Translations under genes and position numbers: made by a program
From: Oscillospiraceae bacterium
GTDB taxonomy: Bacteria; Bacillota; Clostridia; Oscillospirales; Oscillospiraceae
Direction: 5' to 3'
Assembly (NCBI GenBank): GCA_022793095.1
Contig: JAAWCD010000002.1
Span: forward strand, 13,037-77,036
DNA length: 64,000 nt
Part shown: in pieces, positions 7,807-37,423 of the stretch
Layout: every line of letters begins with the position of its first letter
Position numbering within the stretch: position 1 is the stretch's first letter
The notes under the pieces: model-generated
What the model saw: only the letters and a program-made list of their open reading frames with translations
The model's database searches: none
Told to the model about the DNA's origin: nothing

Positions 7807-7912
7807 ATAGGTTTCCTTTCCTATGGGTACAGGAGTCTGCAGCTCGCCGCCCTTGTAATCGCAAGGGCGCTATGATAAACTTATGAAGTGGTAAGAAAGG
7901 CGGGGATTTTCA

Positions 7913-8694: not shown

Positions 8695-8735
8695 GTTCCT
8701 TTTCTTGAACGAAAAGGAACCGAACTTCAATCTGG
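8695..8735 (-). repeat. family A unit A1
   Basis: Plus strand: GTTCCTTTTCTTGAACGAAAAGGAAC (hairpin) + CGAACTTCAATCTGG (tail). Confidence 0.85.
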
Positions 8736-8755: not shown

Positions 8756-8798
8756 CAGCTTAAAGTTCTTTTGCTTCTTTTCTTTCAAGAAAAGGAGC
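8756..8798 (+). repeat. family A unit A2
   Basis: CAGCTTAAAGTTCTTTTG + GCTTCTTTTCTTTCAAGAAAAGGAGC. The stop codon of the FHA-SEDS gene (8785-8787) lies in the loop. Confidence 0.9.
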
Positions 8799-10538: not shown

Positions 10539-10583
10539 GTTCTTTTTCTTGAAAGAAAAAGAACCAAAAAGAACTTCAAATTT
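10539..10583 (-). repeat. family A unit A3
   Basis: GTTCTTTTTCTTGAAAGAAAAAGAAC + CAAAAAGAACTTCAAATTT. Confidence 0.9.
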
Positions 10584-10814
10584 AAATTTCACCGAATTAG
10601 AAACCACATAATGAATAAATTCTTCGATACAAGCAGGCTTACACTCCATACAGTTCAATATCATCAAAAAACCGTTGTTCAGCTTTCGTAGTCCTTCTGT
10701 CGAGGGCCCTCCCGACGTGTTTGATACCTATCGCCAAGCCGCCCATCGCGGGCGAAAAGAGAAGCGGCGGACCTCCGGAGGGCAACCGCCGTCCTGAAAG
10801 CCGCCGCAGTCCGC

Positions 10815-10872
10815 CAGCATAAAGTTCTTTTGCCTACTTTTCTTTCAAGAAAAGTAGGTCAAGAAAAGTAGG
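10815..10872 (+). repeat. family A unit A4 plus a 14-bp tandem copy of its 3' arm
   Basis: CAGCATAAAGTTCTTTTG + CCTACTTTTCTTTCAAGAAAAGTAGG (to 10858). TCAAGAAAAGTAGG is then repeated at 10859-10872. Confidence 0.9.
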
Positions 10873-11875: not shown

Positions 11876-11920
11876 GCCTCCTTTTCTTGAAGGAAAAGGA
11901 GGCAAAGAGCTTTAAACTGG
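11876..11920 (-). repeat. family A unit A5
   Basis: GCCTCCTTTTCTTGAAGGAAAAGGAGGC + AAAGAGCTTTAAACTGG. Confidence 0.9.
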
Positions 11921-11947: not shown

Positions 11948-11992
11948 CGGTTTGAAGTTCTTTTCGGTTCTTTTTCTTCCAAGAAAAAGAAT
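11948..11992 (+). repeat. family A unit A6
   Basis: CGGTTTGAAGTTCTTTTCG + GTTCTTTTTCTTCCAAGAAAAAGAAT. Confidence 0.9.
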
Positions 11993-11998: not shown

Positions 11999-13093
11999 TC
12001 AAGTTGTATAGGGCTTATTACTGCCGTCCAGGGTGGTGATGGTCACATCGTCCAGGGTCAGCTCCCGCTGGTAGGGGTTCAGCCGCTGGTTTACCATGTC
12101 CACCACCTCCTGGGGATACAGCGCCACATACCAGCCGCCGCCGTACTGAGCTGCGTAGTTGCCTGGCAGGGTGCCGCTGCTGATATCACTCATGTCCAGC
12201 CGGGTCAGCACCTGGTTGGCAAAGGCCGTCATGTTCCTGACCGAAAGATCCGTTTCCACATGGTCCATCACAATGCCCACCAGCTCCGGCACCTTCAGCG
12301 GATGGGCCAGCACCTGGGCCAGCACCGCCTTGATGAGCGCTTGCTGCGTCTCCATCCGCTTTTGATCGTTGTAGCCCGCGTTCACAGAGGGGTCGTTGTC
12401 GTGGCGGTAGCGGACCACTTTAATGGCGTCCGCCCCGCTGAGGCGGGTCATGCCCCGGTTAAAGTGAATGTGGAGCTCCTGACCCGGCGTGGGGTCGTCG
12501 TAATTCATATTGACCGGCACCTCAAAGTCCACGCCGCCCAGGGCGTCAATGCCCGCTACAAAGCCATTCAGGTCCACCTTGATATAGTAGTCGATGGGCA
12601 CGCCCAGCAGCTTCCGAAGCTCCGCCTTGAGCTGGTCCACGCCGCCGTTGTTGTAGGAGCTGTTGATTTTCCGGATTTTCCCGCTGCTGTTGAGAATCAT
12701 GGTGTCCCGCGGCACGCTCACCATGTGGACCTCCTGATTCACCGTGTCATACTGGACCACGATGATGGTATCCGTGCCCCCGTTGTTGTGGTCCGTGCCG
12801 CAGAGCAGAACGTTGTATACACCCTCCCTCCGCTGATGAGTCCCGGACGGTGACGGATTGGACGGCGTAAAAACGTCCTCATCTTCTCCGCCGGCATCTG
12901 GCAGCTCCGGCAGGGCGCTGGTCTCCTCCGGGAACAGCGGCAGGTCGGGCAGAACGGTCATATATTGATAAATACAGAATCCCACGACAATAAAGGCCGA
13001 GAGAATCACCAAAAAGCGATAAAACCGGGAAAATCCGCTCCGCTTTGGCTTCTTTTTCATCCGGCGGGGCTGCTGCTTGATACGAGAACCCAC
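11999..13093 (-). CDS. LytR-CpsA-Psr (LCP) family cell-envelope phosphotransferase
   Basis: N-terminal TM segment, then YNVLLCGTDHNNGGTDTIIVVQYD...VSVPRDT, typical of the LCP domain. GTG start with GAGGAGGGG upstream. Confidence 0.88.
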   Translation of the reverse strand: MGSRIKQQPRRMKKKPKRSGFSRFYRFLVILSAFIVVGFCIYQYMTVLPDLPLFPEETSALPELPDAGGEDEDVFTPSNPSPSGTHQRREGVYNVLLCGTDHNNGGTDTIIVVQYDTVNQEVHMVSVPRDTMILNSSGKIRKINSSYNNGGVDQLKAELRKLLGVPIDYYIKVDLNGFVAGIDALGGVDFEVPVNMNYDDPTPGQELHIHFNRGMTRLSGADAIKVVRYRHDNDPSVNAGYNDQKRMETQQALIKAVLAQVLAHPLKVPELVGIVMDHVETDLSVRNMTAFANQVLTRLDMSDISSGTLPGNYAAQYGGGWYVALYPQEVVDMVNQRLNPYQRELTLDDVTITTLDGSNKPYTT

Positions 13094-14685: not shown

Positions 14686-14912
14686 CTTCTTTTCTTGTAA
14701 GAAAAGAAGCCAGCTTGTCGAAAAAGAGGAAATTAAAAATAGAATGACAAAACTGCGAGGGCTTTGAGTGGGGGGATAGTGTGAAAGGGGGGCGAAGCCC
14801 CCGCTTTCGCGTGCAGTCACCCGCCCGCAGGCGACTGATTTCGTCAGAATGACGAAATCAGCTTCAGGCTGTCGACTTTGTCGACAGCCTGAAGCAAAAG
14901 AACTTCAAACTG
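14686..14912 (-). repeat. family A unit A7, split by family B copy B1
   Basis: Hairpin CTTCTTTTCTTGTAAGAAAAGAAG at 14686-14709. The tail AAGCAAAAGAACTTCAAACTG at 14892-14912 is separated from it by the 181-bp insertion. Confidence 0.85.
14711..14891 (-). mobile_element. family B 180-bp MITE-like element, copy B1
   Basis: About 90% or more identical by eye to the copies at 19949 and 38584. Termini are CAGCTTGTCGA...TCGACAGCCTG. Flanked by AAGC at 14707-14710 and 14892-14895. Confidence 0.85.
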
Positions 14913-14939: not shown

Positions 14940-14981
14940 CAGTTTGAAGTTCTTTTCGTTTCTTTTCACTCTGAAAAGAGA
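14940..14981 (+). repeat. family A unit A8
   Basis: CAGTTTGAAGTTCTTTTCG + TTTCTTTTCACTCTGAAAAGAGA. It ends 1 nt before the stop codon at 14982. Confidence 0.85.
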
Positions 14982-16061
14982 TCAACCCACGTAATAAAAT
15001 GCGTCGTCGGGAATCGCGCCGCCGATGGATGTGGGATCGGCGGTATAGAGCATGCTCAGGTAGTCCTGAAGGGCGGGCTGAATCTCCGCGCCGGTGACAC
15101 AGACCAGATTACAGTCCGGAATGGCCCGCAGGGCAATCTGCTCGTTGGCAGTGATTTCAAATTGGGCCACCATGGGAGCGGCCTCCTCCGGGTTCTCCTT
15201 CACGTAGTTGACCGACTCCCCGTATTCCTCCAGAAAGGCGGAAACCAGGTCGGGATGCTCCTCCAGGAAGCCCGTCCGGGCCACCACACACCCCATGGTC
15301 AAGACGCTCCCATTGGTGACGGAGCTGTTCCAGACCTCTGTCAGGTCCAGTGCTGCCCGCACGTCCGGATTCTTCATCTGTACCGCCGTGGCCGCGGGCA
15401 CCGGCAGCATGCACACCTCCGCCTCACCGGAAGCCATTAGGGCTGTGATTTCATCCGCGGCCCGCCACTCAATGGTCACATCCTCGCCAGGGGTCAGGCC
15501 GTTCTGCTCCAGCAGGTAGTTCAAAACGTACTCCGGGTTGGCGCCCTGGCCGGTGGCATAGATGGTCTTTCCCGCCAGGCCGTCCATGGACTGGATGCTG
15601 TTTCCGTTTTCCAGCAGGTAAAGCACACCCAGGGTGTTTAGCGCGATGACCTTGATGCCGCCGTTGGTTTTCTGATAGAGGGACGCGGCCAGATTGGTGG
15701 AAATGGCCGCGATGTCCAGCTCGCCGTTGACCAGCTTTGGGACAATCTCATTGGCCGGGTCAGAGGCAAGCGTGACGTTATAGACCAGCGCGTCAGACGA
15801 AAGCTCATTGTCATAGAGCAGCTTAGCCGCGCCCACACCGGTGGGGCCCTTCAGCATGGCCAGATTGACCTTAACCATATCTCCGCCGGGGGTGGGCTCG
15901 GGCGCGTCTGTGGGCTCAGGCGAGGGGGTGGGTTCCACGGAAGCCGTGGGTTCTGTGGTGGGCGGGTTGGTTTCCTCCGCAGGCTTGGGGCCGCAGCCAG
16001 CCAGCAGAGTACAGGAGAGCGCCGCCGCCAGAGCGAGGGCTATGATTCGAGTTCGGTTCAT
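14982..16061 (-). CDS. ABC transporter substrate-binding lipoprotein (NMT1/THI5-like, NitT/TauT family)
   Basis: Lipobox ALSCTLLAGC, a Pro/Thr/Glu-rich linker, then a periplasmic binding-protein-like body. Operon context with the permease and ATPase. Confidence 0.85.
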   Translation of the reverse strand: MNRTRIIALALAAALSCTLLAGCGPKPAEETNPPTTEPTASVEPTPSPEPTDAPEPTPGGDMVKVNLAMLKGPTGVGAAKLLYDNELSSDALVYNVTLASDPANEIVPKLVNGELDIAAISTNLAASLYQKTNGGIKVIALNTLGVLYLLENGNSIQSMDGLAGKTIYATGQGANPEYVLNYLLEQNGLTPGEDVTIEWRAADEITALMASGEAEVCMLPVPAATAVQMKNPDVRAALDLTEVWNSSVTNGSVLTMGCVVARTGFLEEHPDLVSAFLEEYGESVNYVKENPEEAAPMVAQFEITANEQIALRAIPDCNLVCVTGAEIQPALQDYLSMLYTADPTSIGGAIPDDAFYYVG

Positions 16062-16099: not shown

Positions 16100-16306
16100 C
16101 TCTTCTTTTCTTGCAAGAGCCTGTTTAACATCTCCGGGTGCGCCGGATGGGCCGGAATTTTTTCGTCCAGCAAGGAAAAAAGCGCAGGAATCCTGGAGTA
16201 TTCCGAGCATGTTTGACGCCGCAGGACGGAAAAAGGCCGGTTCAGACGGTGCGTCAGGAGATGTTAAACCAGATCATAAGAAAAGAAGCAAAAGAACGTT
16301 AAACTG
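16100..16306 (-). repeat. family A unit A9, hairpin loop interrupted by family C element
   Basis: The left part, CTCTTCTTTTCTTGCAAGAG, is at 16100-16119. The right part, ...ATAAGAAAAGAAG + CAAAAGAACGTTAAACTG, is at 16273-16306. Confidence 0.8.
16120..16272. mobile_element. family C 153-bp TIR element (MITE-like)
   Basis: Terminal inverted repeats: CTGTTTAACATCTCC at 16121-16135 and GGAGATGTTAAACCAG at 16257-16272. No ORF. It sits inside a family A hairpin. Confidence 0.7.
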
Positions 16307-16333: not shown

Positions 16334-16373
16334 GAGGTTCTTTTTGATTCTCTTCCTTAAGGAAAGAAGGAGC
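16334..16373 (+). repeat. family A unit A10 (degenerate)
   Basis: GGAGGTTCTTTTTG + ATTCTCTTCCTTAAGGAAAGAAGGAG. It ends 5 nt before the crp-family stop codon. Confidence 0.45.
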
Positions 16374-17243: not shown

Positions 17244-18485
17244 ATGGCAGAGCAGAAGAAACCGCGGGGCGCGGACGACGATTATGCCCTTGAAGCGGTC
17301 CCAGCCGCAGCGCGAAAGGGCTTCTGGAGCATGTTTGTGGTCATGATGGGCTTCACCTTTTTCTCAGCCAGCATGAGCGTGGGGGCCAAGCTGGGCAACG
17401 GACTGGATTTGAGCGGCTTTGTGTGGGCCGTGGTCACCGGCGGCGTCATCCTGGGCGCGTACACCGGCGGGCTGGCCTACATCGGCTGCGACACCGGCCT
17501 GACCCTGGACCTGCTGGCCCAGCGCTCCTTTGGCGCCGCCGGGTCCAAGCTGGCCTCGGTGCTCATCGCCTTCACGCAGATTGGCTGGTTCGGCGTCGGC
17601 GTGGCCATGTTCGCCATTCCCGCGGCGGAGCTGCTGGGCGTCCGTCCAGTGCTTCTGGTGCTCATTGCCGGACTGTGCATGACGGCCTCAGCTTATTTCG
17701 GCATCAAGGCCCTCACCATTGTCAGCGCCATTTCCGTGCCGCTGATCGCCATTCTGGGTGTGTACTCCATGACCCTCTCCACCATTGAGGGCGGCGGGCT
17801 GGTGGCAATTTTCTCCCAGTCCTCCGGACAGCTGTCCATTCTGGCGGGCGTGGGGCTGGTGATTGGCTCCTTTGTCAGCGGCGGCACAGCTACTCCCAAT
17901 TTCGTCCGGTTCGCGAAAAATAACGCGGTGGCTGTGTCCACCACGGTGATCGCCTTTTTCCTGGGGAATTCCCTGATGTTCGCCTTCGGTGCAGTGGGCG
18001 GCGCGTTCACGGGACAGGACGACATTTTTTATGTGATGATCGCCCAGGGGCTGGCTATTCCCGCTCTGGTGGTGCTGGGGGCCAACATCTGGACCACCAA
18101 TAACAACGCCCTGTACACCGGCGGCCTGGGGCTGACCAATATCACCGGCCTGCGGCAGAAGCCCATGGTGCTGGTGTCCGGCGCGGTGGGCACGGTGGCA
18201 GCGATTTGGCTGTACAACAATTTTGTGGGCTGGCTGAATTTTTTGAATGCCACACTGCCGCCTGTGGGCATTATTGTCATGCTGGACTATTTTATGCACC
18301 GGGACGCCTATCGGGAAGGAGCTGCGCCCGCCCGGCAGGTGAACTGGGGCTCTATCGCGGGCGTGATTTTAGGCGCGCTGGTGGGAAATTTTGTGCCGGT
18401 AGGCATCACTTCCATCAACGCCATGATTGCCGCCGGCATCTGCTATCTTGCTGCGGACAAGCTGGTGTATGGGAAGAAGGGATAA
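17244..18485 (+). CDS. codB: cytosine/purine permease (NCS1 family)
   Basis: 413-aa 12-TM-type ORF with an NCS1-like N-terminus. Located directly upstream of the cytosine deaminase gene. Confidence 0.85.
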   Translation: MAEQKKPRGADDDYALEAVPAAARKGFWSMFVVMMGFTFFSASMSVGAKLGNGLDLSGFVWAVVTGGVILGAYTGGLAYIGCDTGLTLDLLAQRSFGAAGSKLASVLIAFTQIGWFGVGVAMFAIPAAELLGVRPVLLVLIAGLCMTASAYFGIKALTIVSAISVPLIAILGVYSMTLSTIEGGGLVAIFSQSSGQLSILAGVGLVIGSFVSGGTATPNFVRFAKNNAVAVSTTVIAFFLGNSLMFAFGAVGGAFTGQDDIFYVMIAQGLAIPALVVLGANIWTTNNNALYTGGLGLTNITGLRQKPMVLVSGAVGTVAAIWLYNNFVGWLNFLNATLPPVGIIVMLDYFMHRDAYREGAAPARQVNWGSIAGVILGALVGNFVPVGITSINAMIAAGICYLAADKLVYGKKG

Positions 18486-18589
18486 CCGTATCCATTCGGA
18501 ACAACCGCCCTCCCTGCTGGAATCGCTGCAAGTTCCAGCTTGGCGAAACATCTCCTCTATAAAAAACGTTTGAAAGGCGGAATCAATCC

Positions 18590-19825
18590 ATGCTGATTCA
18601 AAATATCTGTATTGAGAACGCGCCCCAGGTCTTGGACATTCGGGTGACTGGCGGCAAATTCGAGGAAATTGCCGCCGGCCTCACCCCACGTCCGGGGGAA
18701 GAGGTCATCGACGGCGCCGGCAGGCTGGCCCTGCCGCCCTTTATCGAGTCCCATGTCCATCTGGACACCTGCCTCACCGCCGGAGAACCGGTGTGGAACC
18801 AGTCCGGCACCCTATTTGAGGGCATCCAGTGCTGGAGCCAGCGCAAGGAGGCCCTCACCAAGCAGGATGTACGGGACCGGGTGCAGCGGGCGGTACGCAT
18901 GCAGGCCCAGAACGGCGTGCAGTACGTCCGCACCCATGTGGACGTGACGGACCCCAAGCTCACCGCCATGGAGGCCCTGCTGGAGCTCCGGGAAGAACTG
19001 CGGGACACCATTGAAATTCAGGTGGTGGCCTTCCCCCAGGAGGGCATTGACTCCTTCCCCAACGGCCGGCAGCTGATGGAAGACGCGGTGAAGATGGGGG
19101 CCGATGTGGTGGGAGCCATTCCCCACTTTGAGTTTACGCGGGAATATGCGGTGGAGTCTCTGAACTTTGCCATGAAGCTGGCGGAGAAGTACGGCAAGCT
19201 GGTGGATGTCCACTGCGACGAGATTGACGACGAACAGAGCCGGGGGCTGGAGGTGCTGGCGGCCCGTGCCTACGAGTCCGGGCTGAAGGATCGGGTGACT
19301 GCCAGCCACACCACGGCCATGCACTCCTATAACAACGCCTATGTGACCAAGCTGATGCGTCTTTTGAAGCTGTCGGAGATCAATTTTGTCTCCAATCCCT
19401 TGGTGAACACCCATTTGCAGGGCCGGATGGACACCTATCCCAAGCGCCGGGGCGTCACGCGGGTGAAGGAGCTGCTGGCGGAGGGCATCAATGTGTCCTT
19501 CGGCCATGACGATATTTTCGACCCCTGGTATCCTCTGGGCACGGGCAATCTGCGGGATGTGGTCTTTTTGGGGCTTCACGTGTGTCAGATGATGGGCTAT
19601 CAGGAGATTATGGACTCCTACAAGCTCATTTCCACCAACGCGGCCAGGACCCTGCATCTGGGAGAGTCCTACGGAATTAAGGCGGGCAATCCGGCCAGCT
19701 TTTTAATTCTGGAGGGGGAGAATTTTTACGACGCTCTCAACCGGAAAGGGGAAGTGCTCTATTCCTTCAAAAACGGACGGCTCATCGCAAGGGCGGAGCC
19801 CGCAGTCCGGGAAGTGCTGTTTTGA
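18590..19825 (+). CDS. codA: cytosine deaminase (amidohydrolase superfamily)
   Basis: PPFIESHVHLDT metal-binding motif, and the length and sequence character of CodA. Confidence 0.87.
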   Translation: MLIQNICIENAPQVLDIRVTGGKFEEIAAGLTPRPGEEVIDGAGRLALPPFIESHVHLDTCLTAGEPVWNQSGTLFEGIQCWSQRKEALTKQDVRDRVQRAVRMQAQNGVQYVRTHVDVTDPKLTAMEALLELREELRDTIEIQVVAFPQEGIDSFPNGRQLMEDAVKMGADVVGAIPHFEFTREYAVESLNFAMKLAEKYGKLVDVHCDEIDDEQSRGLEVLAARAYESGLKDRVTASHTTAMHSYNNAYVTKLMRLLKLSEINFVSNPLVNTHLQGRMDTYPKRRGVTRVKELLAEGINVSFGHDDIFDPWYPLGTGNLRDVVFLGLHVCQMMGYQEIMDSYKLISTNAARTLHLGESYGIKAGNPASFLILEGENFYDALNRKGEVLYSFKNGRLIARAEPAVREVLF

Positions 19826-19913
19826 GTTCTTTTTCTCGAACGATTGAAGGACACTTGATTTTTCGCAGAAAAATCTTAGCGCCTGTTTCAGGAACCAGGA
19901 AAGATGAAATGCA

Positions 19914-19948: not shown

Positions 19949-20128
19949 CAGGCTGTCGAAAACGCGACAGCCTGAAGCTGATTTCGTCATTCTGACGAAA
20001 TCAGTCGCCTGCGGGCGGGTCACTGCACGCGAAAGCGGGGGCTTCGCCCCCCTTTCACACTTTCCCCCCACGCAAAGTCCTGGCCGTTTTGCCATCCTAT
20101 TTTAACTTTCCTCTTGTTCGACAAGCTG
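19949..20128 (+). mobile_element. family B 180-bp MITE-like element, copy B2
   Basis: CAGGCTGTCGAAAACGCGACAGCCTGAAGCTGATTTCGTCATTCTGACGAAATCAG...GTTCGACAAGCTG. Confidence 0.85.
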
Positions 20129-21985: not shown

Positions 21986-22000
21986 GTTTTTCTCCCTTCT

Positions 22001-22045
22001 CTTCTTTTTCTTGAAAGAAAAAGAAGCAAAAAGAACGTTAAACTG
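22001..22045 (-). repeat. family A unit A11
   Basis: CTTCTTTTTCTTGAAAGAAAAAGAAG + CAAAAAGAACGTTAAACTG. The hairpin ends 15 nt upstream of the ATG at 21985. Confidence 0.9.
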
Positions 22046-22157
22046 TTTCCTTGTAAAGTTGAACCTGGTGGATATCGCCGTTTTAGGGAACCGCTGATTA
22101 AACCGGCGTGCGCGGATTGGCGCGCAAATTTTTTGGTGGGGACGCTGAATTGATCTG

Positions 22158-25627: not shown

Positions 25628-25670
25628 CCCGCTTTCTTGAAAGAAAGCGGGGCAAAGAACTTTAAACTGG
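25628..25670 (-). repeat. family A unit A12
   Basis: CCCGCTTTCTTGAAAGAAAGCGGG + GCAAAGAACTTTAAACTGG. Confidence 0.9.
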
Positions 25671-26742: not shown

Positions 26743-29700
26743 TTATTCCACCGATTTCAACGACTCCACCATGTCGATCTTCCTGAGCTTCCGGTTGGCG
26801 AACAGGTTGACCAGCATGGAGAACAAAACCGTCAGCCCCACTGCATAGACATAGCTGATGGGCCGGGCGGACCGGCCGAACATCACCATGTCCACCTCCA
26901 CCGTGAGCACCAGCCACTGGTGCAGGAATTTGCCTATCACAAGCCCCAGCGCCACGCCGAAGAAGGTGAGCAGCACATTTTCCCGGTACACATAGGCCCC
27001 CATCTCCCGGTCGTTGAAGCCCAGCACCTTCAGTGTGGCCAGCTCCCGCATCCGCTCGGTGATGTTGATGTTCGTCAGGTTGAACAGCACCACAAAGGCC
27101 AGCGCTGCCGCGCACACGATAATCAGCACCACCGCATAATCCACGCTCTCCATGGAGGAGCTGAAGGTCCGCCGGGTGTTCTCCATCCGGGTCACTGACG
27201 TGACTCCGTCCAGAGCGATCAGCCCCGAGGACACCTGAGAGGACAGCTCCTCTGTGTTCTCCGTGTAGGAAATCAGAATCACGTTGTCCTCTGCCGCCTC
27301 GCCGAACAGCTCCTGATAATAGGCGTCGGTGAGATAGGCGTAGTGCATGATGTACTGTTCGGTCAGAGCCCCGATTTCCGCCTCCGCCCGGTGGTCGCCG
27401 TTGACCAGCGTAACCGTGTCGCCAATGCCCACGTCCAGCAGCTCCGCCAGCTTCTCCGTCATGAGCAGGCCCCGGTCCGGCAGGGAAACCGGCGCGTGGT
27501 CCAGCCGGGTCCGCAGCTTCACAAAGCCCTCCAGCTCCGCGCCGCTGCCCACCACAATCAGATTTCCGTCCATGGTGCGGGCAGCGCCCTCAAAGTCCAC
27601 CGCCGTCTGGTTGCAGGCCCGCCAGCGGGCCACCCGCTCGTCCTGGTCCAGCCAGTCCGCCACCTCCGCGAACTCTTCCTCGTCCCATTTGTTGACCAGC
27701 GCGGCCTGGGCGTGGTATTCGTAAAGCTCATCATACTGAATGGCCATGATGTCCAGAATAGAGTCCCGTATACCGAAGCCGGTCACAATCAAGGCCGTGC
27801 AGCCCGCGATGCCGATGACCGTCATCCAGAACCGGCGCTTGTAGCGGAACAGATTCCGCACCGTCACTTTGTGGGAAAAGGACAGCCGCTTCCACACAAA
27901 GCCCACCCGCTCCAGCAGCACCCGTTTGCCCGCTTTGGGTGCCTTGGGCCGCATGAGGGAGGCGGGACCGGCCCGGACCGCGTTCAGAGCCGCCGCCAGC
28001 ACCGCCACTGCGGTACAGCCCACCGCCGCCAGCACCGCCGCCCCGCAGATCCCCGGCTGGAAGGCGAACACCAGGCCGGGAATATTGTACATAATGCGCC
28101 AGGCGCGAATGATAACCCAGGGAATCAGGGTGCAGCCCACCGCCAGGCCCGCGATCCCGCCGGACACAGAGGCCAGCAGTCCGTAGCCCACATATTTCTG
28201 GGCGATGTCCCTCCTGGAGTAGCCCAGGGCCTTCAAGCAGCCGATCTGACTGCGCTGCTCCTCCACCATCCGGGTCATGGTGGTCAGGCACACCAGCGCC
28301 GCCACCAGGAAGAACAGCAGGGGAAACACAGAGGCCAGATTGCCCATCCGCTCCGCGTCCTGCTGGTAGCTGACAAAGCCAATGTTGGCCTTCCGGCCCA
28401 GCAGATACCATTCGCAGTCGTCCAGGCCGTTCACCTTCCGCCGGGCGTCCCGCAGCTCGCTTCGGGCGTCCGCCAGCCCGGTCTGGGCCTCCGCCTTGCC
28501 GTCCTCGTACTCCAAGAGGCCGCCGGCGTACTCCTGTTCGCCGTCCTCCAACTCTACCTTGGCGTCCGCCAGCTCCTTTCGGGCCTTGGCCGTCTCCTCG
28601 GCCAGCTCCCGCCGGCCGTCCGCCAGCTCCACAAGGCCGTCGTTGTACTCCTTCCAGCCGTCGTCCAGTTCCTGCCGGGCGTCCAGGAGCTCCTGTTTGG
28701 CGTCGTCCAGCTCCTTCCGGCCGTCCAAAATCTCCTGTTTGGCGTCATCCAGCTCTTTCCGGCCATCTTCCAGCTCCGCCCAGCCGTCATCCAGCTCTTT
28801 TTTCGCGTCAGTCAGCTCCTGGTCCGCTTCCGCCAGCTCCCTGGCCGCTTCGTCCAGCTCCCGCTTTCCCTCCGCCAGCTCGACTTCTCCGTCCGCCAGC
28901 TCCTGCTTGGCGCTGTCCAGCTCCTGTTTGGCCTCCGTCAGTTCTTCCGCGCCGGCCTCCAGCTCCTCCTTGGCCTCCCGCAGCTGCCGCCGGGCCTCCG
29001 CCAGCTCTTCTTCGCCGGCCTCCAGCTCCTCCTTGGCCTCGTCCAGCTGCTTTTTGGCTTCCGCCAGCTGCCGCCGGCCCGCCTCGTACTCGTCCGCGCC
29101 CGCCTGATATTGGGCGTAACCGGCGCTGTATTCCCGCTCGCCCGCGTCCAGCTGAGCGCGGCCCGCAGCGAGTCCCTGTTCGATTTGTGTGATGCCGCTG
29201 GAAATCTGGTCTACATAGCCCTGAGCCTGGGCCACTCCGGCGCTGGCCTGGTCCACATAGCCCTGGGCCGCGGCCACAGCCCCTACAGCCGCAGCGTAGG
29301 CCGGATCCGACGGGTCCAGACTGTTCAGATAGTCCTGCGCCTGGCTCAGCCCCGCTTCTGCCTGGGCCAGTCCTTCCTGCGCCTGGCTTAACCCGGTCTG
29401 GGCCAGGGGCAGCTGCTCCCGCAGGCTGCTCAGCTGGGCCTCCGCCCCGGCGGTCTGAGCATGATACTCCGCCCAGCCCGCGTCCAGCTGAGCACGGGCG
29501 TCCTGCAGCTGCCGCCAGGCGTCATTCAGCTGGGAATCCGCGCTGGACAACTCCCGTTGTCCCTCCTCGTATTCCTTCCGTCCGTCGTTGTACTCCGCCC
29601 AACCGTCCTCCAGCTTCTTGGCGCCGTTCTCGTAGTCTCTCTGACCGTCATAGTACGCCTTCCAGCCGTCCTGGATCCTCTTGAGGCCGTCCTCATACTC

Positions 29701-30972
29701 CTGTACCCCGTCAGCATACTCCTTCCAGCCCTCCTCCAGGTCCTTCTTTCCCTGCTCGTAGTCCCGAAGGCCCTCGGCGTACTTGACCCGGCCGTCCTCG
29801 TACTCCCTTACGCCCTCCAGGTACTTCTGCTCGCCATCCTTCCACTCCGCCAGGCCCCCGGCGTATTCCGCCTCGCCGTCCTCATATTCCTTGAGGCCAT
29901 CGGCGTACTCTTTTTCGCCGTCCTCGTACTCCAAAAGGCCGTCGGCATATTCCTTCTCGCCGTCCTCCAGCTCCACCTTGGCGTCCGCAAGCTCCTGCTC
30001 TCCGCCGGCCAGCTCCCGTTCCGCGTCCGCTGTTTCCCGCCGCAGGTCAGCCCAGCCCTGGTTGTATTCCTTCCACCCGTCGTCCAGCTCCTGCCGGCCA
30101 TCCGCCAGCTCCTGCGCCGCGTCCGCCAGCTCCTGGTTCACCTCGGCTTCCGCGTCGTCGTATTCCTTTTGGGCGTCCGCAAGCTTTTCCTCTGCCTCCT
30201 CCCGGATATCCTCGGAGCGAAGCCGGGCCCGCCCGTCGCCGAAGGCCTCGTTTTCATCCACCCAGCGGTCCACCAGCGCTTCGTAACCGTCGGAGTAGGC
30301 GTTCCGCTCCTTGGCCCCCTCCAGGGTGGCGTAAGCCTCGGTGTAGGCCTCCATGTCGAAGGCGTCCTTGGGCAGCAGAACAAAGCAGGACACATGCCCC
30401 GTGCCCAAAGAGGAGCTGCCCCGCTGGATGGATAAGTACAGGGGGGATTGACAGGTTCCCACCACCGTGAAGGACTCCCGAGTCAGAGCGTCCTCATAGG
30501 TTCCGGTCCCGGTGTTGATGGTGATGGACACGCCCAGGTCCGCCTCCATGGCCTCCAGCAGGGATTCCTCGGTCAGGCATTCGCCGGGGTTTTCCGGCAG
30601 GCGGCCCCGAATCAGGTTGGGCTGATTGAGGCCCTGTTCGCTGAGGGATACCACCTTGACCGCCAGGTCGTTGTCCCCCACGGGCACCAGTCCGTCGGCG
30701 GTGTAGGCTCCCTCTGCGGCGAGCACGCCGGGCCGGGCGGCCAGGGCGTCAATGTCCTCCTGGGTGATGCCCAGCGTGGCCATAATTTGAATGTCCATCA
30801 TGTTCTGCCGGTCCAGGTAGGCGTCAGCGGTGGCCTCCATGTCCGGGGCGGTGGTCCTCAGTCCGGCCAGAAAGGCCACGGCCAGTGCCACCAGCACAAA
30901 AATGGAAATGAAGCGGCTCCGGGTCTTGCTGATTTCCCGGAACAGATCTTTTTTCAGCGCCTGTTTTGCCAT
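26743..30972 (-). CDS. FtsX/MacB-type ABC transporter permease with a ~600-aa coiled-coil insertion
   Basis: N-terminal TM segment and MacB-like extracytoplasmic domain, a long heptad-repeat segment, then two FtsX-type TM bundles. The ATG at 30972 (MAKQALKK) lies 4 nt after the ATPase stop. The TTG at 30987 is the alternative start. Confidence 0.9.
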   Translation of the reverse strand: MAKQALKKDLFREISKTRSRFISIFVLVALAVAFLAGLRTTAPDMEATADAYLDRQNMMDIQIMATLGITQEDIDALAARPGVLAAEGAYTADGLVPVGDNDLAVKVVSLSEQGLNQPNLIRGRLPENPGECLTEESLLEAMEADLGVSITINTGTGTYEDALTRESFTVVGTCQSPLYLSIQRGSSSLGTGHVSCFVLLPKDAFDMEAYTEAYATLEGAKERNAYSDGYEALVDRWVDENEAFGDGRARLRSEDIREEAEEKLADAQKEYDDAEAEVNQELADAAQELADGRQELDDGWKEYNQGWADLRRETADAERELAGGEQELADAKVELEDGEKEYADGLLEYEDGEKEYADGLKEYEDGEAEYAGGLAEWKDGEQKYLEGVREYEDGRVKYAEGLRDYEQGKKDLEEGWKEYADGVQEYEDGLKRIQDGWKAYYDGQRDYENGAKKLEDGWAEYNDGRKEYEEGQRELSSADSQLNDAWRQLQDARAQLDAGWAEYHAQTAGAEAQLSSLREQLPLAQTGLSQAQEGLAQAEAGLSQAQDYLNSLDPSDPAYAAAVGAVAAAQGYVDQASAGVAQAQGYVDQISSGITQIEQGLAAGRAQLDAGEREYSAGYAQYQAGADEYEAGRRQLAEAKKQLDEAKEELEAGEEELAEARRQLREAKEELEAGAEELTEAKQELDSAKQELADGEVELAEGKRELDEAARELAEADQELTDAKKELDDGWAELEDGRKELDDAKQEILDGRKELDDAKQELLDARQELDDGWKEYNDGLVELADGRRELAEETAKARKELADAKVELEDGEQEYAGGLLEYEDGKAEAQTGLADARSELRDARRKVNGLDDCEWYLLGRKANIGFVSYQQDAERMGNLASVFPLLFFLVAALVCLTTMTRMVEEQRSQIGCLKALGYSRRDIAQKYVGYGLLASVSGGIAGLAVGCTLIPWVIIRAWRIMYNIPGLVFAFQPGICGAAVLAAVGCTAVAVLAAALNAVRAGPASLMRPKAPKAGKRVLLERVGFVWKRLSFSHKVTVRNLFRYKRRFWMTVIGIAGCTALIVTGFGIRDSILDIMAIQYDELYEYHAQAALVNKWDEEEFAEVADWLDQDERVARWRACNQTAVDFEGAARTMDGNLIVVGSGAELEGFVKLRTRLDHAPVSLPDRGLLMTEKLAELLDVGIGDTVTLVNGDHRAEAEIGALTEQYIMHYAYLTDAYYQELFGEAAEDNVILISYTENTEELSSQVSSGLIALDGVTSVTRMENTRRTFSSSMESVDYAVVLIIVCAAALAFVVLFNLTNINITERMRELATLKVLGFNDREMGAYVYRENVLLTFFGVALGLVIGKFLHQWLVLTVEVDMVMFGRSARPISYVYAVGLTVLFSMLVNLFANRKLRKIDMVESLKSVE
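28432..30225 (-). repeat. coding heptad-repeat region (E-Y/L-x-D-G-x-x type)
   Basis: Residues ~255-852 (numbered from the 30987 start) form runs such as EYADGLL EYEDGEK EYADGLK EYEDGEA... and KELDDAK QEILDGR KELDDAK QELLDAR. A non-repeat tip lies around SLDPSDP (~res 555-562). Confidence 0.9.
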
Positions 30973-31704: not shown

Positions 31705-31749
31705 CCACTTTTTCTTGAAAGAAAAAGTGGCAAAAAGAACTTTAAGCTG
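31705..31749 (-). repeat. family A unit A13
   Basis: CCACTTTTTCTTGAAAGAAAAAGTGG + CAAAAAGAACTTTAAGCTG. Confidence 0.9.
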
Positions 31750-31887
31750 ATTCTTGCAAGAAAAATCAAGGCTTACAGATTTTTTGGGCGGGGGAATAAG
31801 AGCCTATCCCAGAATTCGGCGTGCACAGATTGCGCCGTCAGATTTTTCGTCAAGGGACGCCAAATGTGAACTGTTTTTGAACACCTG

Positions 31888-32035: not shown

Positions 32036-32605
32036 ATGCCTGGGGAAGGGGAAGACCGCCGGGTCCGAAAAACGAAAGCGTTGCTGCGGGAAAGCCTGCA
32101 AAGGCTGTTGTTGGAAAAGCCGCTGCGGGAGATTACGGTTAAGGAGCTGACGGAGGCGGCGGATGTAAACCGGGGAACGTTTTACAGCCACTACCGGGAT
32201 ATTTATGATTTGCGGGATCAGATTGAGGAGGAGCTTTTCCGGGAATTTGTGTCGATGATGGACAGCTATCCGGCGGACAAGCTGCGGCGGGGCCTGAGAC
32301 CGATTTTGACAGATGTGTTCCGGTTCATCCTGCGAAACGCGGGGACGGGCGCGGTTTTATTTGGACCTGCCGTTTATAGCGGGTTTCTGGACCGGATTAA
32401 GGCGGAGCTGCACCGCCGGGTGGGGGAGGAATGGCAGGGGCTGTATGGGTTTCAGGGCTCCGCCCAGTGGAATTATTATCTGGAATTTGTGGTGGCAGGC
32501 TGCATCGCGCTGCTCCAGACCTGGACAGGGAAGGGAATGAGGGAGACGCCGGAGGAGATGGCCGCCATGGCGGAGCGGTTTATTCTGTTTGGATTGCGGG
32601 AGTAG
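32036..32605 (+). CDS. TetR/AcrR-family transcriptional regulator
   Basis: RKTKALLRESLQRLLLEKPLREITVKELTEAADVNRGTFYSHY HTH signature. GGAGGG precedes the ATG at 32036. Confidence 0.88.
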   Translation: MPGEGEDRRVRKTKALLRESLQRLLLEKPLREITVKELTEAADVNRGTFYSHYRDIYDLRDQIEEELFREFVSMMDSYPADKLRRGLRPILTDVFRFILRNAGTGAVLFGPAVYSGFLDRIKAELHRRVGEEWQGLYGFQGSAQWNYYLEFVVAGCIALLQTWTGKGMRETPEEMAAMAERFILFGLRE

Positions 32606-32689
32606 TGGTTTGGCAGGGTGGTTCCCTGATTCTCTGGTTTACGAATATGGACCGATATGATATGATGGAATTACAAGGAGGCGTGCCCT

Positions 32690-33538
32690 TTGAGCATCCC
32701 GACAATGGAAGAATTAACGGAACTTTCGGAGTCTGTCCCCACCACGGATCAGATTCAGGACTATCTTGGGAATATGCTGAATAACCTGTTTCCCGCCATT
32801 ATCACCCTCGTCTTCTGCGTTTTGGTTTCCAAGGTGATTTTGAGCTTTTCTGACCGGCTGATGCGGCGGATGTCCGCGGAACCGACCCTTGGCAAGTTCA
32901 TTCGCGCCGTACTTCGGGTTATCCTCTGGCTGCTGACAGCCATTATGGTAGCGGACAAGCTGGGGATTCCCACCAGCTCCATGGTGGCCCTGCTCAGCGT
33001 TACCGGCCTGGCTGTGTCCCTGGCCCTCCAGAACACCCTGTCCAATCTGGCGGGCGGCATTCTTCTGCTGGTGACCAAGCCTTTTATGGTGGGAGATTAC
33101 ATCTCTGCCGGTGGGGTGGAAGGTACGGTGCTGGAGGTCGGCCTGGTCTACACCAAGGTCAACACCGTGGACAATAAGCGCATTTCTATCCCTAACAGCG
33201 ACATTTCCGGCGCTAAAATCATCAATTGCTCCACGGAAGGCCGCCGGCGGGTGGACCTGGTGATTTCCGCCTCCTATGACGCGCCGGTGGAGACGGTGAA
33301 AAACGCCCTCCGGGAGATCATTGCCGGTCATCCTCTGGTGCTGCCCGACCCGGAGCCCTTTGTCCGGCTTTCCGCCTATCAGGACAGTTCTATTGCCTAT
33401 ACGGTCCGGGTCTGGACCAATAATTCCGATTATTGGACCGTTTATTTTGACATGCTGGAGCAGGTCAAGACCACCTTTGACAAGTACGGCATTGAGCTGA
33501 CCTATAACCATTTGAATGTGCATCTGATGGACAAGTGA
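32690..33538 (+). CDS. mechanosensitive ion channel (MscS family)
   Basis: Three TM helices, then LSNLAGGILLLVTKPFMVGDYI, typical of MscS. TTG start 8 nt after GGAGG. Confidence 0.88.
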   Translation: MSIPTMEELTELSESVPTTDQIQDYLGNMLNNLFPAIITLVFCVLVSKVILSFSDRLMRRMSAEPTLGKFIRAVLRVILWLLTAIMVADKLGIPTSSMVALLSVTGLAVSLALQNTLSNLAGGILLLVTKPFMVGDYISAGGVEGTVLEVGLVYTKVNTVDNKRISIPNSDISGAKIINCSTEGRRRVDLVISASYDAPVETVKNALREIIAGHPLVLPDPEPFVRLSAYQDSSIAYTVRVWTNNSDYWTVYFDMLEQVKTTFDKYGIELTYNHLNVHLMDK

Positions 33539-33547
33539 GGAACAGCA

Positions 33548-33988
33548 ATGGATTTAAACAGCACGGAGCAGATGACCGGTCAGGAATATAATGAGCTTCG
33601 GGTAAGCGTGGGGTGGAATCCGCTCACCGATGGGCAGGCGGAACGAGGAATCCAACATACCACATTTTTGACGGCGGTCAGAGATAGCGGCAGAATTGTT
33701 GCCATGGGCAGAATACTTTTCGATTTCGGATATACGGCCTACCTGGGAGATGTCCTCGTCCGTCCGGAATATCAGGGGCAGGGCATCGGCAGTCAGGTTG
33801 TGGAGGGTCTGATCGAGAGAACCATGGCCGCGGCCCAGGAGGGAGATCGAATCATATTCATTTTGGGCGCGGCGAAGGAAAAGGAAGCCTTTTACGAAAA
33901 GCTGGGGTTCCGCCGGCGGCCCAATGAATGGTCCGGCGCAGGAATGTCCATGTGGCGCACAAAGCAGCCTTCCGGCCCGAGAGACTGA
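33548..33988 (+). CDS. GNAT-family N-acetyltransferase
   Basis: VRPEYQGQGIGSQVV acetyl-CoA-binding motif. 146 aa. Confidence 0.87.
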   Translation: MDLNSTEQMTGQEYNELRVSVGWNPLTDGQAERGIQHTTFLTAVRDSGRIVAMGRILFDFGYTAYLGDVLVRPEYQGQGIGSQVVEGLIERTMAAAQEGDRIIFILGAAKEKEAFYEKLGFRRRPNEWSGAGMSMWRTKQPSGPRD

Positions 33989-34002
33989 TTGGCACAAAAA
34001 AA

Positions 34003-34031
34003 CTGGCATCCGAACAAAATTCGGATGCCAG
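34003..34031. terminator. bidirectional intrinsic terminator
   Basis: CTGGCATCCGAA-N5-TTCGGATGCCAG is preceded by an A7 run. It lies between convergent genes. Confidence 0.7.
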
Positions 34032-34036
34032 CCTCT

Positions 34037-34513
34037 TTATTTCGGCATGTTCAGCCCGTGGATGAAGCCGTCCAGACGGCTGGACAGCACATCTCCGCCG
34101 ATAATCGTCCCTTGGTGCACTAGAAGCCCGGCCTGCACGCCGGTTTCCCCGCTGGGATAGTTGGTGATTTCGTAGCAGTACCGCTTCACCCGCTTGCCCC
34201 GGTAGCGCTTCAGGTCAAAGCCCTGCTGCTCTTGAAGGGTCAGATATTCCGTGTAGGTTTCATCAAACTCCTTCGGAATCAGCAGCTCCTCAATGGACAC
34301 CGGGTCCGGATTGACCGTCCAGCCGAAGGATTCCAGGTAGGCGATCCGGGCGGCGTCATCCCCGCCGTCAACCTTGGCCTCACCCATCACAGCGGCGGCG
34401 GGCCCCAGGCCCAGACAGCCCGCGCCCAGCAGCAGCGCACAGAGAAGCACCGCCCCGCCGCAGCACCAGCCCAGGATTTTTTTGCGCTGCACCTTCGCGG
34501 TTAAGATAAACAC
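34037..34513 (-). CDS. membrane-anchored protein, DUF4830-like (family recalled, not verified)
   Basis: N-terminal TM segment, then ...IAYLESFGWTVNPDPVSIEELLIPKEFDETYTEYLTLQEQQGFDL... Confidence 0.65.
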   Translation of the reverse strand: MFILTAKVQRKKILGWCCGGAVLLCALLLGAGCLGLGPAAAVMGEAKVDGGDDAARIAYLESFGWTVNPDPVSIEELLIPKEFDETYTEYLTLQEQQGFDLKRYRGKRVKRYCYEITNYPSGETGVQAGLLVHQGTIIGGDVLSSRLDGFIHGLNMPK

Positions 34514-34783
34514 GACGCAGCCCCCCTTTCTTTCTCAACATAATTATGACAGGAGGGGGAAGGATATGCTTGGAATCTGCCTTGGTTTGTGGTAAAATGC
34601 GCTTTGCACGCCAGATTGGAAAAGTCTTTTCCAGCGTGGGAACTTTCTTCCCTCCGATACGTCTAATCCTCTGAACCCAGGCAAGTAAAGCCGCCTGGGC
34701 CGCATGACTTCCAGGGAACCACGGATCGCGAACGTCATCGGAACCAAAAATCCTACCACTACTTACAAAAGGAGCGAACATTT

Positions 34784-35902
34784 ATGACACACCGTAAAAC
34801 CTCACTGGTCCTTGCGGCGCTTTTATCCCTGTCCCTTCTGACCTCCTGCGGCGGGCAGAGCCCCCAGGAGACGGACAATTCCGGCGGCTCTGTCCCCCCG
34901 GCCGCCTCGGTGGAACCCACCCAGCCCCCCGACACCCCCGCGCCGGCCCTGCCGGACACTCCCGCGCCCACAGAGACCCTCCCGCTGGAGACGGATGCAC
35001 CCGCTGAAACGGCGCCTGTGGAGACCGCTCCGGCAGAGGACGGTGAAATTCGCTTGACCCTGAACAAGACGGATGTGACCCTGTACGCGGCCGGGAAAAG
35101 CTTCACCCTCAAGCCCAAGCCGGAAGGCGTGCCGGAGGGCTCTGCACTGGCTTTGAGCTGGTCCTCCAGCGACGAGTCGGTGGCCAAGGTGGAGAGCAGC
35201 GTTGGCGGTCTTTCCGCGGTTGTCACCGCCGTAGGACCGGGCACCGCCACCATCACCGCCAGACCGGTCAATTCCACGGCAGTGGATGATCCGCTTACCG
35301 TGAGCTGCATTGTGCGCTGCCGCTGGACCGAGGAGAGCCCGGAGCCTTCCACGCCCGCTGTGACCCCCACCTCCGCACCGGTGGAAACGCCTCCTGTGGA
35401 GACCGCGCCCCCCACCTCCGCACCGGTGGAAACGCCTCCTGTGGAGACCGCGCCCCCCACCTCCGCGCCGGTGGAAACGACTCCTGTGGAGACCGCGCCG
35501 CCCGCGCCTGCCTCCGCCGATTTGACCAAGTTCTACGAGAATACAATGAGCAAGTATGAGTTTGGCTTCCTGGAGCTGGCGGATGCCGGGCTTGTGGACA
35601 ATTTTTATTCCGGCCTGAGCGGCATCCCTACGGAGCAATGTCTGGTGTACATCTGTATGATGAGCATGAACAACGGTGAATTTGTTCTGGTTCAGGTAAA
35701 GGACAGCGGCGATGTGCCCGCCGTCAAGGATATTTTGCAGGCGCGGGTTGACAGCATGGTGGACGGCGGAGCCTGGTATCCTGCTGCCATAGAGCAGTGG
35801 GAGCTTAATTCCCGCGTGGTTTCCAATGGGAATTACGTCATGATGGTGGTCCACGAGAACGCGGACAGCATCGTTTCCGAGTTCAACACGTTTACCAGCT
35901 GA
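34784..35902 (+). CDS. lipoprotein with Big_2-like Ig domain, Pro/Thr repeat linker and DUF4358-like C-terminal domain
   Basis: Lipobox LSLLTSC. SWSSSDESVAKVE...VTAVGPGTATITA is a Big_2 signature. Three 15-aa repeats follow. The C-terminal domain family is recalled, not verified. Confidence 0.8.
   Translation: MTHRKTSLVLAALLSLSLLTSCGGQSPQETDNSGGSVPPAASVEPTQPPDTPAPALPDTPAPTETLPLETDAPAETAPVETAPAEDGEIRLTLNKTDVTLYAAGKSFTLKPKPEGVPEGSALALSWSSSDESVAKVESSVGGLSAVVTAVGPGTATITARPVNSTAVDDPLTVSCIVRCRWTEESPEPSTPAVTPTSAPVETPPVETAPPTSAPVETPPVETAPPTSAPVETTPVETAPPAPASADLTKFYENTMSKYEFGFLELADAGLVDNFYSGLSGIPTEQCLVYICMMSMNNGEFVLVQVKDSGDVPAVKDILQARVDSMVDGGAWYPAAIEQWELNSRVVSNGNYVMMVVHENADSIVSEFNTFTS
35368..35502 (+). 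repeat. 45-bp x 3 in-frame tandem repeat
   Basis: Units start at 35368, 35413 and 35458 (CACCTCCGCACCGGTGGAAACGCCTCCTGTGGAGACCGCGCCCCC). They encode TSAPVETPPVETAPP. Confidence 0.95.
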
Positions 35903-36009
35903 ATGAAATATGATTCTCTCAGCACCTTCACCGCTGGATTTTCTAAACTTTTCATCCCTGCCTGCCTTCGCACCATCACAAATCCATAAACACAAAAGGG
36001 GGCCCCTCT

Positions 36010-37410: not shown

Positions 37411-37423
37411 AGGAGGCGCGCCC

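Follow-up and report, generated by a model that had tools for sequence, protein, structure and literature searches.

The 64-kb stretch analyzed here (the window) is 57% GC and spans the replication origin region, with rpmH-rnpA-yidD-yidC on the - strand and dnaA-dnaN-recF-gyrB-gyrA on the + strand. Its spacers carry approximately 23 units of a repeat, called family A here, that nhmmer detects at a density of about 1 per 2.8 kb, split 12 to 11 between the two orientations. Each unit consists of an AT-rich, perfect hairpin of 24 to 28 nt plus the tail CAAAAGAACTTTAAACTG. In orientation P, the hairpin consensus is N3-5 CTTTT(T)CTTGAAAG(A)AAAAG N'3-5, and the tail consensus is CAAAA(A)GAACTTTAAACTGG. 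The hairpin core TTTTCTTGAAAGAAAA occurs at 21 distinct sites in the window with up to 2 mismatches, where chance predicts 0.02, and the tail AAAAGAACTTTAAACTG occurs at 19 sites with up to 3 mismatches, where chance predicts 0.10. Element length runs from about 46 nt, for a hairpin with its 20-nt tail, up to about 110 to 190 nt for the longer forms, which comprise inverted pairs, long-tail elements, and mosaics. The units of the window lie as follows.

8695 to 8735, + strand: hairpin 8695 to 8720, 5 nt past the TAA (8687 to 8689) of a + strand gene; left half of a 107-nt inverted pair.
8756 to 8798, - strand: hairpin 8773 to 8798; the FHA-SEDS TGA (8785 to 8787) lies inside the loop.
10539 to 10583, + strand: hairpin 10539 to 10564, 17 nt upstream of the FHA-SEDS TTG start at 10521.
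10814 to 10872, - strand: hairpin 10833 to 10858 with a duplicated half-arm at 10859 to 10872; the tail is that of the approximately 95-nt long-tail subfamily.
11876 to 11920, + strand: hairpin 11876 to 11903, 21 nt upstream of the asparaginase (ansA) GTG at 11854; half of a 117-nt inverted pair.
11948 to 11991, - strand: hairpin 11968 to 11991, 7 nt past the TGA (11999 to 12001) of a LytR-family gene.
14686 to 14709, + strand: hairpin, 19 nt upstream of the ABC permease ATG at 14666; its tail was moved to 14896 to 14912 by a nested 185-nt repeat (14711 to 14895).
14940 to 14979, - strand: hairpin 14961 to 14979, 2 nt past the stop of a binding protein gene (14982 to 14984).
16103 to 16306, + strand, split in the loop: right hairpin half 16103 to 16118, approximately 38 to 41 nt upstream of the binding protein ATG at 16061; left arm and tail 16278 to 16306; between the halves, an insert of approximately 170 nt (16119 to 16277) with terminal inverted repeats.
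16337 to 16368, - strand, degenerate: approximately 6 to 12 nt past the stop of a Crp-family gene at 16379.
19817 to 19853, - strand, degenerate: the tail overlaps the stop of a + strand gene (19823 to 19825), an exception to the flush rule.
22001 to 22045, + strand: hairpin 22001 to 22026 (CTTCTTTTTCTTGAAAGAAAAAGAAG) and tail to 22045; the tkt-N ATG at 21985 (- strand) lies 15 nt downstream of the hairpin.
25628 to 25670, + strand: GC-richer hairpin 25628 to 25651, 59 nt upstream of the glyQS -35 hexamer; flush with no ORF.
31705 to 31749, + strand: hairpin 31705 to 31730, 26 nt upstream of the ABC ATPase ATG at 31678 and downstream of a promoter-like site at 31936 to 31909.
38872 to 38916, - strand: hairpin 38891 to 38916, 1 nt past the ricT stop (38918 to 38920) and upstream of a terminator-like hairpin.
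40141 to 40186, + strand: hairpin 40141 to 40166, 29 nt upstream of the ricT ATG at 40111; the unit fills a 78-nt spacer, its tail ending 3 nt from the upstream gene's stop at 40190.
41208 to 41290, strand unassigned: two units back to back, hairpins 41219 to 41244 and 41257 to 41278, tails toward the genes, the opposite of the usual arrangement.
43181 to 43214, - strand, short variant: 47 nt past the stop at 43262, beyond an intrinsic terminator.
45459 to 45501, + strand: hairpin 45459 to 45482, 24 nt upstream of the yidC ATG at 45434; long-tail subfamily.
45596 to 45638, - strand: hairpin 45617 to 45638, 0 nt past the yidD stop (45639 to 45641).
46672 to 46713, - strand: in the rpmH-dnaA (oriC) spacer, upstream of the rpmH promoter; flush with no ORF.
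59623 to 59661, + strand: hairpin 59623 to 59646, 23 nt upstream of the M15 peptidase ATG at 59599 and downstream of a TTGAAA...TATAAT promoter-like site.
60533 to 60573, - strand: hairpin 60550 to 60573, 0 nt past a TAA (60574 to 60576); the tail adjoins a canonical intrinsic terminator.

The sequence-only reading had placed these hairpins flush against ORF boundaries, and the distances were largely recovered when rederived. Pfam agrees with the gene names it used, and in the segment from 21986 to 22045, AGAAGGGAGAAAAAC precedes the tkt-N ATG at 21985 as described. Hairpins lie 15 to 29 nt from eight start codons (tkt-N, 15; FHA-SEDS, 17, with the TTG at 10521; ABC permease, 19; ansA, 21; M15 peptidase, 23; yidC, 24; ABC ATPase, 26; ricT, 29). 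The 38 nt given for the binding protein became approximately 38 to 41 nt and is measured from half of a split unit. On the stop side, eight stop codons and a ninth in the loop (8785 to 8787) adjoin hairpins, but the gaps, claimed to be 0 to 6 nt, are 0, 0, 0, 1, 2, 5, 7, and approximately 6 to 12 nt. The geometry is not random: 16 of the 23 window units are flush, compared to 3.7 ± 1.7 (maximum, 12) in 20,000 trials in which position and orientation were randomized within the same spacers. Exceptions to the flush arrangement lie at 25628, at 41219 and 41257 (reversed), at 43191 (after a terminator), at 46688 (oriC spacer), and at the degenerate 19817. The first of these had already been offered as a counterexample, and it does lie 59 nt upstream of the glyQS -35, flush with no ORF. 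Finally, AGAA was said to follow the hairpin nearly always; it does so in about six of nine start-side units, and universality was overstated. From what is established about initiation sites, AGAA would be the 5' part of an extended Shine-Dalgarno (SD) sequence, AGAAAGGAGG, complementary to the 3' end of 16S rRNA.

The flush pattern extends beyond the window. A search of genome contigs for an exact 26-nt pattern, by which the loci were ascertained, returned more than 113 stretches from dozens of species-level genomes, nearly all of them Oscillospiraceae (Oscillibacter, Flavonifractor, Pseudoflavonifractor capillosus, Intestinimonas, and Pelethomonas). The flush pattern is also seen in 147 units from these other genomes, where genes were taken from a simple in-house caller and start codons are approximate. 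Full units there are intergenic in 146 of 147 cases, and overall no more than 1 unit in 165 is intragenic. In 113 other-genome loci, the hairpin side is the side nearer to a gene in 91 of 109 units (p = 6e-13), with 66 units stop-side and 43 start-side. Stop codons cluster at the loop TGA (9 cases) and 0 to 2 nt before the stem (approximately 22 cases), and start-side hairpins end 0 to 10 nt ahead of the SD. The asymmetry is strongest in spacers of at least 150 nt, where 53 of 106 units have the hairpin edge no more than 30 nt from a gene and only 1 of 106 has the end of its 20-nt tail so close. About half of these large-spacer units (53 of 106) are not flush.

The units resemble neither terminators nor promoters. 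An intrinsic terminator has a GC-rich stem and a U-tract, and the stems of family A are AT-rich and are followed by CAAAAG or AGAA. The sole unit with a GC-richer stem followed by a T-run is that at 25628, which has a terminator-like arrangement on the - strand, and a separate terminator-like site within 80 nt accompanies only 7 of 61 stop-side units. We also considered the loop TTGAAA as a -35 element and the tail TTTAAA as a -10 element, but the spacer would run from 18 to 21 nt across the 4T and 5T length variants, and the candidate -10 has neither A2 nor T6; that reading was rejected. A promoter consensus scan found one site overlapping a unit, a weak 9/12 match (TTTAAA-17-CATAAT, 43189 to 43161) on the short variant at 43181 to 43214.

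Stem pairs were counted outward from the loop center in 137 distinct hairpins, a count that replaced a MAFFT alignment of 138 units in which matched T/A-run indels misregistered the stem. Positions 2 to 8 are nearly invariant. Positions 9 to 12 each use three or four Watson-Crick pair types and are paired in 93 to 99% of hairpins, compared to 41 to 49% with shuffled partners, and position 13 uses four pair types and is paired in only 73%, compared to 26%. G-T pairs are nearly absent. As RNA, the hairpins have predicted energies of -10 to -18 kcal/mol.

Family A behaves like a mobile repeat of the REP/BIME or MITE kind rather than like an ancient regulatory motif. Its distribution is patchy: essentially no units were found in 745 kb around relatives of the asparaginase (identity of 73% or less), and 27 kb from a relative whose AnsA is 88% and whose RicT is 81% identical are free of them. 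The 26-nt sequence is matched exactly in dozens of other species, and one species, with a RicT 91% identical, has retained the two ricT units at their positions. In a relative that is 85% identical, the unit in the glyQS spacer sits elsewhere and points the other way, and in another genome (L110), the rpmH-dnaA spacer also has a unit of opposite orientation. Both are independent insertions into a spacer that also has a unit in the window. Moreover, the units form 21 tail-inward inverted pairs, 3 of them in the window as recognizable composites of 107 to 117 nt with arms of approximately 45 nt, as well as 16 tandem neighbors, including arrays with periods of approximately 50 and 100 nt. Other repeats are nested within units, namely, the 185-nt repeat (14711 to 14895) between a hairpin and its tail and the element of approximately 170 nt (16119 to 16277) in a loop.

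The machinery of such movement was sought in the loci examined. No recurrent transposase-like protein appeared among 657 flanking proteins in loci of up to 8 kb, where the only large cluster was ABC ATPases. Neither eight aligned copies nor the window copies showed a target-site duplication at their ends, and no parent insertion sequence was found in the loci examined. Because none of the three was found, mobility is something that we infer. Carriage by phage was rejected, as IMG/VR contained only 8 matches. No empty site of sufficient identity was found, and same-species contigs, at 99.9% identity, have the same units. The L073 orthologue was discarded as an empty site for its different C terminus and terminator.

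The hairpin is not the center of the repeat but its end. Conservation falls to zero at the outermost base pair of the stem, and on the tail side it continues for approximately 22 nt in all copies. Tail-side homology reaches approximately 95 nt in three window copies, approximately 110 to 165 nt past the hairpin between the tkt and ABC ATPase leaders, and approximately 125 nt in eight copies that another genome carries. In these eight, the far end (AGTATCA) repeats the hairpin's outer arm in inverted form, and the element of approximately 125 nt runs from (TG)ATACT... to ...AGTATCA. These alignments mark the hairpin as the terminal module of a longer element. Since the hairpin is an element end, the rule that the tail faces away follows, as does much of the 53-to-1 asymmetry.

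The spacers that carry the element also consist largely of repeat sequence. In 6 of 16 unit-bearing spacers, the nonrepeat DNA amounts to only 2, 3, 4, 13, 49, and 74 nt, and with repeats subtracted, the median residual length is 86 nt in unit-bearing spacers and 105 nt in unit-free ones. The yidD-yidC junction is 10 nt in L110, where it is unit free, and 205 nt in the window. Similar inferences for ansA and ricT were dropped, as the upstream genes in relatives are nonorthologous; only the yidD-yidC junction stands. In unit-free relatives, a terminator begins 2 to 12 nt after the asparaginase stop, and the median stop-to-terminator spacing is 21 nt. Because the gaps are so short, an insertion that survives must adjoin an ORF end or an SD.

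Some insertions appear to have gone further and clipped the ORF itself. The asparaginase ORF beside the unit at 10814 to 10872 ends ...GEIS-YFS*, with YFS* encoded by the repeat arm, and relatives of this GEIS-YFS* AnsA end in GEVSLPQ*, GEITLK*, and the like. Eleven ORFs use the loop TGA as their stop, all in the same frame, and other stops straddle the unit junction in varying registers, with all three stop codons used. Units that clip ORFs thus donate the stop, and stop codons pile up at distance zero without any targeting.

We therefore consider it somewhat more likely than not, at roughly 0.55, that the geometry arises largely from mobile-element insertion and purifying selection in a compact genome. 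Family A would be the terminal hairpin module of a small, noncoding, mobile-type intergenic repeat that has spread in some Oscillospiraceae lineages. Its insertions would be tolerated only where a few nucleotides are neutral, either from a stop to the following signal or from a 5' signal to the extended SD. The inserted element would then make up almost the entire spacer, such that the hairpin comes to lie against the ORF boundary with the recognizable tail inward. Insertions that clip the last codons may survive if a stop forms at the junction or the loop TGA serves, and stop codons would accumulate at 0 nt or inside the loop. The sequence-only reading had held that the geometry is not expected of random MITE insertion. 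That contention is undercut by a hairpin that is a terminal module, by spacers that are nearly all repeat DNA, and by the tight junctions of unit-free relatives. Moreover, both orientations are common and half of the large-spacer units are not flush, as would be expected if an element with a hairpin at one end inserted in random orientation. Noncomposite units of the window are hairpin flush in approximately 10 cases and tail flush in 3 or 4, and a residual orientation bias is possible.

A bias of another sort, likewise raised from the sequence, is that ORF ends, such as stop codons or the SD region, are recognized by the insertion machinery, which also fixes the orientation. The sharp peak of stop codons 0 to 2 nt before the stem, in several registers, and the presence of insertions in very tight junctions are what such targeting would produce. 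The flanks of start-side and stop-side hairpins share no motif, however, and recognition would have to work on mirror-image targets at the start and the stop of a gene. All three stops are used, overlapping the stem in varying registers, stop donation by the units accounts for the pile-up, and approximately half of the large-spacer units are not flush. Targeting is thus unsupported by the flanks, and we regard it as improbable.

Whether the units act in mRNA is a separate matter. Their placement between promoter-like sites and the SD, or between a stop and a terminator, suggests that they are probably transcribed, and a role at the mRNA level, as had been proposed, is possible; it is not needed for the geometry. 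In its strongest form, the repeat may have been domesticated as a general cistron-boundary module, in which a hairpin at the edge of the SD or at the stop blocks exonucleases and may tune initiation or termination, and the outward AU-rich tail is a processing site. Selection would keep the hairpin as an exonuclease barrier beside the coding sequence and the tail as an entry for RNase Y or RNase III, cistrons would be processed and stabilized at both ends, and wrong orientations would be purged. The mirror symmetry, hairpin toward the coding sequence and tail outward, is as the model requires. The units at 31705 and 59623 have promoter-like sites upstream, those at 38891 and 60550 have terminators downstream, the hairpins are predicted to be stable (-10 to -18 kcal/mol), the stems are 93 to 99% Watson-Crick with three or four pair types at the outer positions, and the tails of inverted pairs are predicted to be able to base pair with each other.

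The two ricT units and their flanks are identical at 150 of 160 nt (94%) in a species with 72% identity at fourfold sites, and 49 nt of the unit at 38872 to 38916 are identical there. Conservation of the ricT units above the synonymous rate points to constraint beyond passive survival. Nonetheless, flushness is already explained by insertion and survival in compact spacers, close relatives manage without units, the units at 25628, 46688, and 43191 lie outside transcripts, and the pair at 41219 and 41257 is reversed. An AU-rich cleavage site, moreover, needs no conserved tail sequence. Almost no G-U pairs occur in the stems, and the wobble pairs that do occur have no strand bias. A test of G-U against A-C wobbles for the transcribed strand was uninformative, as stems are almost all Watson-Crick and the apparent bias came mostly from overextended stems. 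A domesticated role at mRNA ends is more interesting than passive insertion and filtering but less likely, and we think it unlikely as a general account.

The units might instead act on translation. The pyrimidine-rich tail and left arm could occlude the SD, and hairpins less than approximately 15 nt from a stop could slow terminating ribosomes, as reported for E. coli REPs; Liang, Rudd, and Deutscher reportedly found in 2015 that REPs no more than 15 nt from the stop codon lower expression. In most cases, no more than 8 nt separate the stop from a stop-side hairpin of family A. Genes with a start-side unit have a lower predicted probability of an unpaired SD (median, 0.26 versus 0.38; p = 0.003), and in the tkt and ansA leaders, the stem is predicted to extend via G-U pairs into the SD. 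The effect is modest and is one of prediction, however, any purine-rich SD pairs with a nearby U-rich tract, and the affected genes are unrelated housekeeping genes. Translational control as the reason for the geometry is more doubtful still than targeting of ORF ends.

Alternatively, the units could be sites in DNA, either phased A-tracts or cruciforms to which a nucleoid protein or a topoisomerase binds, an idea put forward for BIMEs. The palindromes are perfect and free of wobble pairs on both strands, A5 tracts in the tail are approximately 10 nt apart, and the oriC spacer carries a unit in two species. Such sites have no reason to adjoin ORFs, however, close relatives do without units, and we know of no binding protein. 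We give this explanation very little credence.

If family A is a mobile repeat, its nearest analogs are among the REP, BIME, and REPIN elements of Proteobacteria. These are likewise short, palindromic, extragenic, and of high copy number, and they occur as singletons, inverted dimers, and clusters; family A, with hairpins of 24 to 28 nt and approximately 23 units in 64 kb, forms inverted dimers and clusters as well. Both lie mostly between codirectional or convergent genes. In both, many copies lie under 20 bp from the 3' end of an ORF, and some supply its stop, TAG included in the case of REPs (PMC3733652). Family A differs in that its stem is AT-rich and perfectly paired where that of REPs is GC-rich and imperfect, in its conserved one-sided 20-nt tail, and in that nearly half of its copies lie just upstream of an SD in sense orientation. 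Its hosts are Clostridia (Oscillospiraceae), and no RAYT transposase is linked to it in loci of up to 8 kb. The GTAG/CGTC tag of REPs is lacking, in that GTAG is found only in a CCTAC...GTAGG subfamily, where it is base paired in the stem, and other subfamilies end in GAAC, GAAG, GTGG, or GTAT.

A second likeness is to MITEs, such as Correia of Neisseria, RUP and BOX of Streptococcus pneumoniae, and ERIC/IRU of enterobacteria. These too are noncoding intergenic elements of approximately 50 to 190 nt with inverted termini that amplify in lineage-specific bursts, lie in 5' and 3' untranslated regions (UTRs), and fold into hairpins. Co-transcribed MITEs are reported to affect mRNA processing and stability. 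Terminal inverted repeats are present in the 107- to 117-nt inverted pairs and in the element of approximately 125 nt of the other genome. Unlike MITEs, family A has shown no target-site duplication or parent insertion sequence, and its basic unit is one hairpin plus a tail, strongly modular, and not two terminal repeats around a core. A third likeness is to stabilizer stem-loops, those of the B. subtilis cggR-gapA processing site and aprE leader and the E. coli malE-malF REP, in which a hairpin lies beside the coding sequence with an AU-rich single-stranded stretch on its far side. Family A has the same layout, but the stabilizers are single-locus structures with measured effects and family A is known from sequence alone. 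No Rfam family matched the window at gathering score (only chance-level matches, with E values of approximately 0.9 to 3.3), and a full-text literature search returned no paper with the family A sequence and none on repeats in Oscillibacter or Flavonifractor. Thus, family A is apparently an undescribed family of the REP/BIME-MITE kind.

The family is extremely dense and is present in many uncultured gut Oscillospiraceae, where it inflates intergenic spacers, rewrites protein C termini, and equips housekeeping genes with stable hairpins in their 5' and 3' UTRs. If part of it affects mRNA stability or translation, it would constitute a genome-wide regulatory layer in abundant gut commensals, and if it is a domesticated module, hundreds of gut-bacterial genes would share one portable system of mRNA-end control. 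If it has no effect on mRNA, it would be a clean example of purifying selection in a compact genome making a mobile repeat look purpose-built. The repeat also breaks short-read assemblies exactly at gene starts. Six independent short-read contigs begin inside the hairpin core, 39 to 40 nt upstream of the tkt ATG, and breaks at such a place are the signature of a high-copy-number repeat.

Besides the Family A units, the window holds further repeated or inserted segments, as follows.

14711-14895, second repeat family, copy nested in a Family A unit
19965-20127, second repeat family, copy
38601-38763, second repeat family, copy
22098-22150, third module, tkt leader
31815-31880, third module, ABC-ATPase leader
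16119-16277, segment of ~170 nt with inverted termini TGGTTTAACATCTCC ... GGAGATGTTAAACAGG, within the loop of a Family A hairpin, which it splits

The third module reads GCGTCCC..AC.AAAAA..GC.CAATC.G.GCACGCCG, and in each of the two leaders its distance from the hairpin is ~110-165 nt. Because the tkt and ABC-ATPase leaders have this module in common, we conclude that both units are parts of a longer mosaic element. A full Family A element of ~125 nt was found in MAG Lapin-001 bin13, in an alignment (A5) that took in loci L014, L021, L030, L039, L048, L068 and L071. There, CAAAAAGAACTTTAA follows the hairpin; next come another hairpin (ATCGCTCT-CAAAGCG.TGCGAT) and a conserved block, CACGGTAACG. 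At the far end of the element, ...GGAGAATAGTATCA mirrors (TG)ATACT, with which the first hairpin starts.

Some Family A units are themselves interrupted. The second repeat family (~163-185 nt) is 90-93% identical among its three window copies and contains palindromes such as CAGGCTGTCGACAAAGTCGACAGCCTG. The nested copy separates the hairpin from its tail and apparently is flanked on both sides by GCTTC, and in a related species another copy (L205, 1-120) sits upstream of the ricT unit. The ~170-nt segment has CTT on both sides and looks like another small mobile element inserted into a Family A hairpin loop. Finally, one rabbit-gut MAG has Family A units arrayed in direct tandem, at periods of ~100 and ~50 nt (L054, 1218-1654; L029, 702-935). 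These arrays are placed between convergent or codirectional genes, and a diverged hairpin in inverted orientation (CTTCCCTTTTTTCCAAAAAGGGAAG) closes each of them.

Across the whole window, hairpin-side genes show a bias toward the - strand (~18 of 19), and just one unit occurs across the + strand blocks (1-8689, 17244-19825, 32036-38551 and 46873-56854). Left of oriC, the biased genes are leading-strand genes. The history of the region, expression level or recent acquisition of DNA might account for the bias. The rpmH-dnaA (oriC) spacer carries a unit in two species, in opposite orientations (window 46672-46713; L110, 5088-5127).

Metagenome assemblies are systematically fragmented at gene boundaries by the Family A repeat. 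Six independent short-read Logan contigs (L004 and L006-L010) begin 39-40 nt before the tkt ATG, at a point inside the hairpin core. L204 begins in a unit that is joined to Illumina adapter sequence. One exact match (L064, 1676-1709) lies on a 956-kb contig labeled Candidatus Nanoarchaeia archaeon, far outside Oscillospiraceae, and may reflect a mis-binned contig or else a chance or transferred copy.

Repeats also occur within coding regions of the window. A 1409-aa ORF (26743-30972, - strand) contains, at 28400-30200, a very long stretch of repeats with a 21-nt period, encoding 7-residue repeats, and the gene at 34784-35902 (+ strand) contains three near-identical 45-nt tandem repeats at 35364-35503.
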